Shown here: piece after piece, positions 13,564 to 14,700 of the stretch
Layout of the letters: the number at the start of each line of letters is the position of its first letter
How positions within the stretch are numbered: position 1 is the first letter of the stretch
DNA from: Dehalococcoidia bacterium
GTDB lineage: Bacteria > Chloroflexota > Dehalococcoidia > Plut-88900
Direction: 5' to 3'
Assembly (NCBI GenBank): GCA_965197585.1
Contig: OZ240215.1
Location: forward strand, 960,001 to 1,024,000
Length of the DNA: 64,000 nucleotides
Program-made: the position numbers and the translations under genes
The notes under the pieces: generated by a model
Databases searched by the model: none
Seen by the model: the letters and a program-made list of their open reading frames with translations, nothing else
What the model was told of the DNA's origin: nothing

Positions 13564-14535
13564 CTAGCAACTGTGTTGGGGGAGGGGTATTGGGGAGGTG
13601 CGGGTGGGGTGATTCCAGGAGGCTCCGTCTCTGATCATAGCATTGAGGATGGTGAGGAGTTTACGCATGGAGGCGACTAAGGCCACCTTACCGGGCTTAC
13701 CGGCTGCGACCAACCGCTCATAGAAGGCCTTGATAGGAGGGTTGTGGACTCTGGCGCTCATGGTGGCCATGTAGAGGGCGCTTCTGATGTTGGCCCGACC
13801 GCCCCATATGGAACGTCTTCCCCTATGACGACCACTGTCCCTGTTCAAGGGAGCGACACCGACAAGGGCGGCGATCTGCCTGCGGTTGAGGGAGCCGAGT
13901 TCGGGGAGAGCGCCGACGAGGGTGAAGGAGGAAACGGGGCCCAGGCCGGGGACATTTCTGAGGAGGAGGAGCTTGTCCTTCCAGAGGATGTTGGAGTTAA
14001 TGAGGTCGTCTATCTCGCGGTCGAGGTCATCCAGTTCTTGAGAGAGGAACTGGATGTGTTTGTGGAGGCTTGGGAGAAGAGGGTCGAGGGCGCGCTTGAG
14101 GCGAAGGGACTCGGCGGTTCTCATGTCGATGAGCTGCTTTCTGCGGGAGAGGAGGGCCTTGAGATGGGCAGCCTGAGGGTCTGGGAGGGGGCGGGCGTCG
14201 GGTCTGAGGGTGAAGGCGAAGCGGGGGATGGTGTGGGCGTCGATGGCATCGGTCTTGGCTAGTCTACCGGTGGAGCGAGCGAAGTCCCTGATCTGCCTAG
14301 GGTTCATAACGGCAGTGGGTATCTGATGGAGGCCACACTCCAAAGCGAGAGGCATCTCGAGGCCACCGGTGGACTCCATGACAATGAGGGTGACATTGAG
14401 GTCCTTGGCCAATTGAAGGATCTCACTGATACCCTGAGGGTCGTTAGGGAGCCTGGCGGCCTGGTTTTGGGGGAGTACGTGAAGGTCGAGGAACTGACCA
14501 CCGACGTCGATACCCATGACAGAGTCTTGACTCAT
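13564..14535 (-). CDS. IS110-family DEDD recombinase/transposase
   Basis: 'GIDV', 'MESTG', 'KTDAIDA' RuvC DEDD; 'VPGLG', 'APLNRDSG' Tnp-domain Ser; '[11 protein letters not shown]'. Confidence 0.95.
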
Positions 14536-14539
14536 GTTA

Positions 14540-14668
14540 TCCCTTTCTTGCAGGTACGGGTTGTTTGACCCGGGCAACTGTACGGGCTTAGATGAGAGAG
14601 GGTGCGGCGGCACAAGCTAAGACTCGGTCTTGAAGGACCACGATTCCTACGGCCTGCCGCACCCGAAC
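14540..14668 (-). ncRNA. Predicted bridge RNA of the IS110 element
   Basis: Target loop closed by GGGTGCGGC/GCCGCACCC with guides AGGAATC and GAGTCTTAG; donor loop with ACAGTTGC and CAAG; boundaries approximate. Confidence 0.85.
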
Positions 14669-14674
14669 AGCCTA

Positions 14675-14700
14675 ACTCTATCACCGTTGCGTCACACAAG
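14675..14700 (-). promoter_or_regulatory. Left-end half of the circle-junction promoter (extended -10 TGA-TAGAGT)
   Basis: Joining the ends gives TTGCTT-N17-TAGAGT. Confidence 0.65.

Follow-up and report, generated by a model that had tools for sequence, protein, structure and literature searches.

An IS110-group insertion sequence in a Dehalococcoidia genome with a probable bridge RNA in its left end

We observed that the window (the whole stretch of 64,000 nucleotides that was analysed) carries an insertion sequence of the IS110 group, c1, whose left end (LE), judging from the sequence, very probably encodes a bridge RNA. Feature for feature, it conforms to the bridge-RNA logic published for IS110/IS621, and is thus an additional IS110-type member. 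Its anatomy, its family membership, the conservation of the RNA fold, and the covariation of the guides with the targets and the donor ends were demonstrated in this analysis.

The element, its recombinase and its target repeat

The element c1 occupies positions 13566-14700 of the window on the minus strand, and has a length of 1,135 bp including a CT on both sides; one of the two CT cores is derived from the target. Read on the minus strand, the left junction is GAGGGAT-CT-TGTGTG (core at 14700/14699) and the right junction is ACAGTTG-CT-AGGACTT (core at 13567/13566). All the coordinates and strings of the original prediction were found on this strand. The LE is 165 nt long (14536-14700, minus strand; assigned from a covariance model match and by inspection), and it starts with CT/TGTGTG, which is the right donor. 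The donor ends of IS621, ACAG...-CT-TGT..., are of the same type as those of c1.

A search of the genome (3.43 Mb, one contig) revealed seven copies with exactly the same ends, and conservation among them stops at or just beyond the c1-type ends. Copy c2 shows 99% DNA identity with c1, c3 shows 94%, and c4-c7 show 87-88%. A CT was present on both sides of all seven copies, and of all 72 insertions (own and from relatives) for which both ends were found. The left ends of c5-c7 are identical at three loci, and a same-genus genome, G120, has one copy with an LE identical to that of c4. Full open frames are present in five of the seven copies (c1 and c4-c7). We also observed that c2 (1486117-1487250) and c3 (2796185-2797294) share an identical CAG-to-TAG change at codon 14, yet differ by about 6% overall, and that c3 looks mosaic, with a 5' coding part like c1/c2 and a 3' part like c4-c7. 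The shared stop codon and the mosaic together suggest exchange between copies.

The recombinase gene (13564-14535, minus strand) was assigned by profile matches and alignment, and encodes 323 aa with DEDD RuvC-like and Tnp domains (PF01548, DEDD_Tnp_IS110, E 4.4e-21; PF02371, Transposase_20, E 2.6e-16). It scores 221 bits against the NCBIfam model NF033542, 'IS110 family RNA-guided transposase', for which the cut-off is 140, and it matches the solved ISCro4 and IS621 structures over its full length (E 3.7e-38 and 4.7e-36). The predicted catalytic residues D10, E54, D96, D99 and S234, together with G235, align to D11, E60, D102, D105, S241 and G242, which are given for IS621 in PMC11208158. More than 8,000 homologues were found, hundreds of them with over 50% identity. 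The protein had been described as compact and from a distant lineage. At 323 aa it is about the size of IS621 (326 aa) and lies within the family range of 300-460 aa given in PMC11208160 and PMC11208158, and neither its NCBIfam score nor its number of homologues fits a distant lineage. The family-level scores, the homologue number and the size therefore make it an ordinary member of the IS110 family. The further description, uncharacterised, applies only insofar as this particular orthologue has not been put to the test. In the literature searched, we found no paper on both IS110 and Dehalococcoidia, and one that mentions bridge RNA, IS110 and a Chloroflex- name; supplementary orthologue lists may already include the clade.

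The non-coding right end is 0 nt long, since the stop codon of the recombinase overlaps the right core. This stop, TAG, consists of the core T and the AG of the flank (AG or AA across the copies), and the left donor site is formed by the last codons, ...CAC AGT TGC. In a same-genus genome with a right target that begins with GGGG, the frame continues for 21-63 codons into the flank, to 344-386 codons. With the target completing the stop codon, the choice of target would set the C-terminus of the recombinase. Downstream of c1 lie a gene for a CsoR-type metal-sensitive repressor (13182-13469, minus strand; PF02583, E 3e-23) and a long ORF (10542-12938, minus strand) that looks, by its motifs, like a heavy-metal P-type ATPase.

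When we examined the flanks, all seven copies were found to lie inside one short interspersed repeat, GTCATTCCGAGGCyCCGCGAGGAAT-CT-AGGACTTGCCC. In each of the seven, the element is preceded by xGGAAY and followed by A(A/G)x without any offset, and a CT stands on each side. Outside c1, the left half of the repeat is ATTCCGAGGCTCCGCGAGGGAT (14701-14722) and the right half is AGGACTTGCCCACTCAC (13549-13565), both on the minus strand. The repeat is present in 130 copies in the genome (with up to four substitutions); the left part ends in AGGAATCT in 74 of them and in AGGGATCT in 34, and the right-half subfamilies include AGGAC (24 copies), AAGGC (16) and GGGGC (15). The intact target that had been proposed for c1 does exist, as 18 exact empty AGGAATCTAGGAC sites were found genome-wide, one of them in the window (38525-38537, minus strand, exact match). 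The presence of these matching empty sites indicates that the rebuilt target of c1 is real. The left target of c1 itself, AGGGAT, is not necessarily a mutation that followed insertion, since it is a natural variant in 34 of the 130 repeat copies. Copies at sites unrelated to this target were also looked for, and all seven own copies and eight copies in two same-genus genomes were at AGGAAY-CT or AGGGAT-CT.

The repeat had been called a genomic REP family. The many interspersed copies agree with this name, but a palindrome with a stable hairpin was not found in the repeat unit: the DNA fold is -2.9 kcal/mol (z = +0.87, equalled by 156 of 200 shuffles), and self-pairing is limited to ATTCC/GGAAT. 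We therefore rejected a true palindromic REP and, as the unit is not convincingly palindromic, refer to it as REP-like.

The same repeat also borders another element. An IS481-like transposase gene (14787-15770, plus strand; terminus at about 14723-14786) adjoins c1; it has rve domains and scores 184 bits against NF033577, below the cut-off of 224. Directly next to its end (...CACTTACA) lies ATTCCGAGG, a stretch of the REP-like repeat that c1 targets, and at least 12 other genome sites have the same junction of IS481 terminus and repeat. From this recurrence, a second IS family appears to sit in, or carry, the repeat.

The fold of the left end

The single-sequence minimum-free-energy fold of 14536-14700 does recover the main stem and both hairpins, but was no better than that of shuffled sequences (z = -0.93; 34 of 200 shuffles at least as stable). 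For this reason the fold was tested on relatives. The set comprised 77 oriented loci: seven from this genome, 67 that came from 20 further genomes within the class, and three from other phyla. Both ends were recognisable in 72 of these, and gave 41 distinct left ends; the other five, in which an end could not be recognised, were dropped. Of the 41, 39 were aligned (alignment A1); the two left out had a partial tandem duplication in one case and a shifted anchor in the other.

The fold has two internal loops, both on the minus strand. The target-binding loop with its closing helix (14600-14664) was assigned from covariation, and is closed by GGGTGCGGC (14656-14664) with GCCGCACCC (14600-14608) and by GGCC (14651-14654) with TGCC (14609-14612); its apical hairpin, GGTC...GACC (14626-14639), rests on covariation in helix 2. 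The donor-binding loop (14540-14587) has a closing helix of GCCC (14584-14587) with GGGA (14540-14543) and an apical hairpin of CGGGT (14568-14572) with ACCCG (14557-14561). Over the 39 left ends, helix 1 is 96.4% paired, with compensatory change in 8 of its 12 pairs, and helix 2 is 100% paired, with compensatory change in three of four; for helices 3 and 4 the paired fractions are 90.4% and 93.3%. Taken together, the four helices (25 pairs) are 95.4% paired, compared with 34-46% after sliding the partners by 1-3 columns. Changes on both sides were seen in 16 of the 25 pairs, and none of 500 shuffles reached any of the five measures used. The stem that had been proposed at 14600-14608/14656-14664 thus holds, since it covaries in the relatives. 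In c1 a G-to-T change in the stem disrupts one pair of the GGCC helix.

A covariance model, R1, was built on 38 of these left ends; one LE with a large insertion was left out of alignment A2. R1 matches c1 at genome positions 974536-974666, corresponding to window 14536-14666, with 115.9 bits (c1 being in the training set). It finds exactly nine sites in the genome, which are the seven copies and two sites that were not used in training (105.8 and 102.9 bits). All nine lie directly 5' of an IS110-type gene, and there are zero orphan RNA copies.

The Rfam scan returned no bridge-RNA family, and the sole matches were sub-threshold ones to RF02234 (the Xanthomonadaceae sRNA sX15) on the opposite strand. 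As an identity for the LE RNA, sX15 was rejected (31.4 bits against a threshold of 55). The model does match the bridge-RNA region in five of the nine left ends scanned, at 31-50 bits against the gathering threshold of 55 and always on the strand opposite to the recombinase: at window 14528-14674 (plus strand), and in the relatives L019 (1355-1502), L012 (1358-1517), L061 (422-545) and L109 (1533-1689). The sX15 model may be the reverse complement of an IS110 bridge RNA.

Guides and their covariation with targets and donor ends

Durrant (PMC11208160) describes a left target guide (LTG) that is complementary to the bottom strand on the left side of the core, and a right target guide (RTG) that is complementary to the top strand, beginning at the core and running to its right. 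By homology with the relatives, the LTG window of c1 is the 9-nt TAGGAATCG (14641-14649, minus strand). Within it, AGGAATC (14642-14648) is identical to the top strand of the target, AGGAAT-C, in the repeat consensus. The last base (G in c1, A in other copies) differs from the core T, which sets these elements apart from most relatives. With its own site, AGGGAT, the c1 LTG has one A-C mismatch, at -3. The RTG, placed by homology as well, is AGTCTTAG (14617-14624), followed by CT (14615-14616), so that the feature covers 14615-14624 on the minus strand. It faces the flank CTAGGACT, and as AGUCUUAG it forms seven Watson-Crick pairs and one U-G pair with CT-AGGACT. An RTG of GAGTCTTAG (14617-14625) with two wobbles had been proposed earlier; its location and complementarity were correct, but by homology the guide is the 8-nt AGTCTTAG, with one wobble.

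Guides and sites were then compared across the copies. In c2, the RTG is AGCCTTAG and the site is CT-AAGGC, giving seven consecutive Watson-Crick pairs out of seven. Copy c3 has AGTCTTAG at CT-AAGGCG, with one wobble and one terminal mismatch, and c5-c7 have AGCTCTAG at CT-AGGACT, with one mismatch and one wobble. Copy c4 and the G120 copy, which share an identical LE with the RTG AGTCTTAG, are at CT-AAAGCG and CT-AACGCG (two mismatches and one wobble). In another same-genus genome, seven copies have the RTG AGCCCCAG, and all of them are at AGGAAT-CT-GGGGY.

We further estimated guide-target pairing over 69 usable insertions (one with a truncated flank was dropped), representing 33 distinct guide pairs and 26 different RTGs. 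Over the 33 guide pairs, Watson-Crick pairing at RTG positions +1 to +5 was 76-91% with the cognate target and 23-34% with non-cognate targets; at LTG positions -5 to -1 the values were 61-85% and 25-44%. None of 20,000 permutations reached the observed pairing for the RTG and none of 20,000 for the LTG, figures that overstate independence since related elements share ancestry, and an alignment-free test of guide and target likewise gave 0 of 20,000. The guides therefore track the flanks.

Chance matching was evaluated on c1 alone with 20,000 dinucleotide shuffles of the LE. The 7-mer match to the left target was reached in 118 shuffles, the 8-nt match to the right target (G-U allowed) in 1,212, and the 8-mer match to the left donor in 23. 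The 6-nt match to the right donor was reached in 14,865 of the 20,000, and was rejected as independent evidence. No shuffle matched all four guides together.

The left donor guide (LDG), ACAGTTGC (14574-14581, minus strand), is identical to the right end of the element, ACAGTTG-C. LDG and left donor change together in two sets of relatives, to ACAGCTG (L019) and ACGGTTG (L070-L072). Covariation on the donor side is scarce (2-3 independent changes), as the ends are nearly invariant in the clade. The right donor guide (RDG; 14545-14555, minus strand) pairs with CT-TGTGT and is best read as ACC-UG-CAAG (14547-14555), pairing round a 2-nt bulge and followed by AA (14545-14546). This reading agrees with IS621, for which PMC11208160 describes nine RNA nucleotides that pair discontiguously with seven donor bases. 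Relatives that end in CT-TGTAT have U in place of C at the matching base of the RDG. The CAAG (14547-14550) that had been proposed as the RDG is present and pairs with CTTG, but the guide is longer than these four bases.

The base after CAAG is complementary to the final base, position -1, of the left target: G stands opposite C in 26 of 28 cases and A opposite T in seven of eight. The A-for-T group consists of the family of c1 and one independent lineage. In c1, the first A of the AA at 14545-14546 complements T(-1) of the left target, at the handshake position that PMC11208158 describes for the IS621 bridge RNA. The CT at 14615-14616 sits at the IS621 handshake-guide position, and G(-1) of the left donor is a possible partner for its C. 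The covariation of guides and helices, together with the membership and catalytic residues of the protein, bears out the predicted LTG/RTG/LDG/RDG layout.

Observations on further left ends touch on the same guides. A second, single-copy IS110-group element outside the window (G000:C1:1850395-1851510, plus strand; 49% aa identity) has an LTG, AATCATCCT, and an RTG, TTGCTCAG, that fit its site GCTCACC-CT-GAGCAGA. A third, truncated paralogue (about 2221836-2222904) has an upstream match to the RNA model. In the relative L064 (G217:C7:2080477-2082591), the LE contains a 40-nt tandem duplication that takes in the 5' half of the target-binding loop as well as the element start, ends exactly at the LTG, ...TCATC-CT, and is followed by TGTATATT; it looks as if the element's own LTG had served as target.

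Mobility, mechanism and relation to known systems

By analogy with IS621, we infer a circular intermediate, a junction promoter, handshake pairing and the same chemistry. The bridge RNA would fold into its two internal loops, and the target-binding loop would read the REP-like AGGAAT-CT-AGGACT, its 5' strand, AGGAAUC, being paired to the bottom strand on the left side of the core, and its 3' strand, AGUCUUAG, to the top strand, starting with the core and continuing to the right. In like manner, the donor-binding loop would read the element's own joined ends, ACAGTTG-CT-TGTGT. A DEDD/Ser recombinase tetramer would exchange strands at the CT core, and the circular element would be inserted without a scar.

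The putative circle-junction promoter of the c1 family, TTGCTT-N17-TGn-TAGAGT, is weak (7 of 12 matches, with a TG upstream). Its -35-like TTGCTT consists of TTG from the right end, the core CT and a T from the LE, and thus straddles the core, 17 nt upstream of the candidate extended -10-like box TGA-TAGAGT (14675-14683, minus strand). In most relatives TTGACW-N17-TATSTT spans the junction (9-12 of 12), and the right end contains the -35 box. The sole sigma-70-like site in the region is CTGTCA-N17-TACAAT (9 of 12; 14721-14749, minus strand), which is in the IS481-like terminus and faces the IS110 left end, 21 nt downstream; it could drive the RNA of the integrated copy. When reads and contigs of four public runs were placed on 13300-14950, none of the joints corresponded to a circle junction or an empty site at the locus. 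Three RNA libraries gave contigs that overlap the LE (13709-14722, 13641-14722 and 14477-14649), but these may be DNA carry-over or come from other copies, and cannot establish a transcript, its ends or its strand.

These results bear on whether the family still moves. The copies could be immobile relics, with guides that record a past specificity and a c1 that no longer moves. The stop at codon 14 in c2 and c3, the disrupted GGCC-helix pair in c1, the weak junction promoter, and the public runs without a circle-junction or empty-site contig would agree with this. However, the frames of c1 and c4-c7 are open throughout and keep all five catalytic residues, and the LE of the G120 copy is identical to that of c4. 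In addition, the 99% identity of c1 and c2 and the identical left ends of c5-c7 at three loci argue for recent movement. We therefore consider the relic explanation unlikely.

It could also be argued that the LE is merely the leader or promoter of the recombinase gene, and that the matches are remnants of terminal repeats or chance. The 3' stem of the donor-binding loop does overlap the likely ribosome-binding region just 5' of the ATG, and the minimum-free-energy z-score is not significant. Neither point accounts for guides that change with their targets in 33 distinct guide pairs, for the compensatory changes in the helices, or for four matches that no shuffle out of 20,000 reproduced together, and we regard this explanation as highly improbable. 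Together, these studies have led us to prefer an IS110-group element whose LE is a likely source of a bridge RNA.

A more tentative proposal is that the Dehalococcoidia clade uses a trimmed variant of the bridge system, with no non-coding right end, an LTG that ignores the second core base, a -35-like box straddling the core, and a diversified RTG. As part of this possible reading, the RTG would have branched, inside a single genus, into four or more variants that follow the right-half subfamilies of one repeat. The U-rich AGUCUUAG could address both the AGGAC and the AAGGC subfamilies through rU-dG wobble; if true, this would be natural multiplex targeting. The natural record is unusually complete, with seven copies, three guide variants and a fourth in a same-genus genome, and many empty sites, so that the guide rules of the clade (five programmable bases on each side of the CT, and an 8-nt RTG) can be read from the copies and their sites alone. 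These rules may aid the choice of orthologues for genome engineering and the annotation of Chloroflexota. The understanding of how IS110 bridge elements work is unchanged by c1.

Of the known systems, IS621 of E. coli, as described in PMC11208160 and PMC11208158, is alike in having a two-domain DEDD/Ser recombinase of equal size, and its catalytic residues all align. It also shares the CT core, an LE-encoded RNA with target-binding and donor-binding internal loops, an LTG and LDG identical to the top strand, an RTG and RDG complementary to it, a bulged RDG, and insertion into a short interspersed repeat. However, the RTG is 8 nt including the core in c1 and 4 nt in IS621, although longer RTGs occur in some orthologues (Durrant, PMC11208160). 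The LTG of c1 effectively pairs 6 nt and the C, skipping the core T. Unlike IS621 as described there, c1 is without a non-coding right end, with its left donor in the last codons and its stop completed by the flank, and its -35-like box straddles the core, whereas that of IS621 is in the right end. The hosts differ as well, c1 being in a genome of the class Dehalococcoidia.

The best match in sequence to a solved structure is ISCro4/IS622-type (PDB 9t56; 10.1101/2025.05.14.653916), at E 3.7e-38 over residues 6-316, although its relationship to the c1 recombinase is only distant in sequence. The ISPpu9/ISPpu10 elements of Pseudomonas putida are likewise a multi-copy IS110 family in one conserved intergenic or REP sequence, as described in PMC12288879 and 10.64898/2026.03.19.712850, but their host and sequence differ from those of the c1 family. 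ISPpu9 is described there as having an sRNA gene 3' of the transposase in five of seven copies, whereas in c1 the RNA is upstream and nothing lies downstream. The IS1111 group belongs to the same recombinase family as c1, and is characterised in PMC11208160 by an RNA in the right end and long subterminal inverted repeats. We rejected this layout for c1, which has a long LE (165 nt) that contains the RNA structure, and no non-coding right end.
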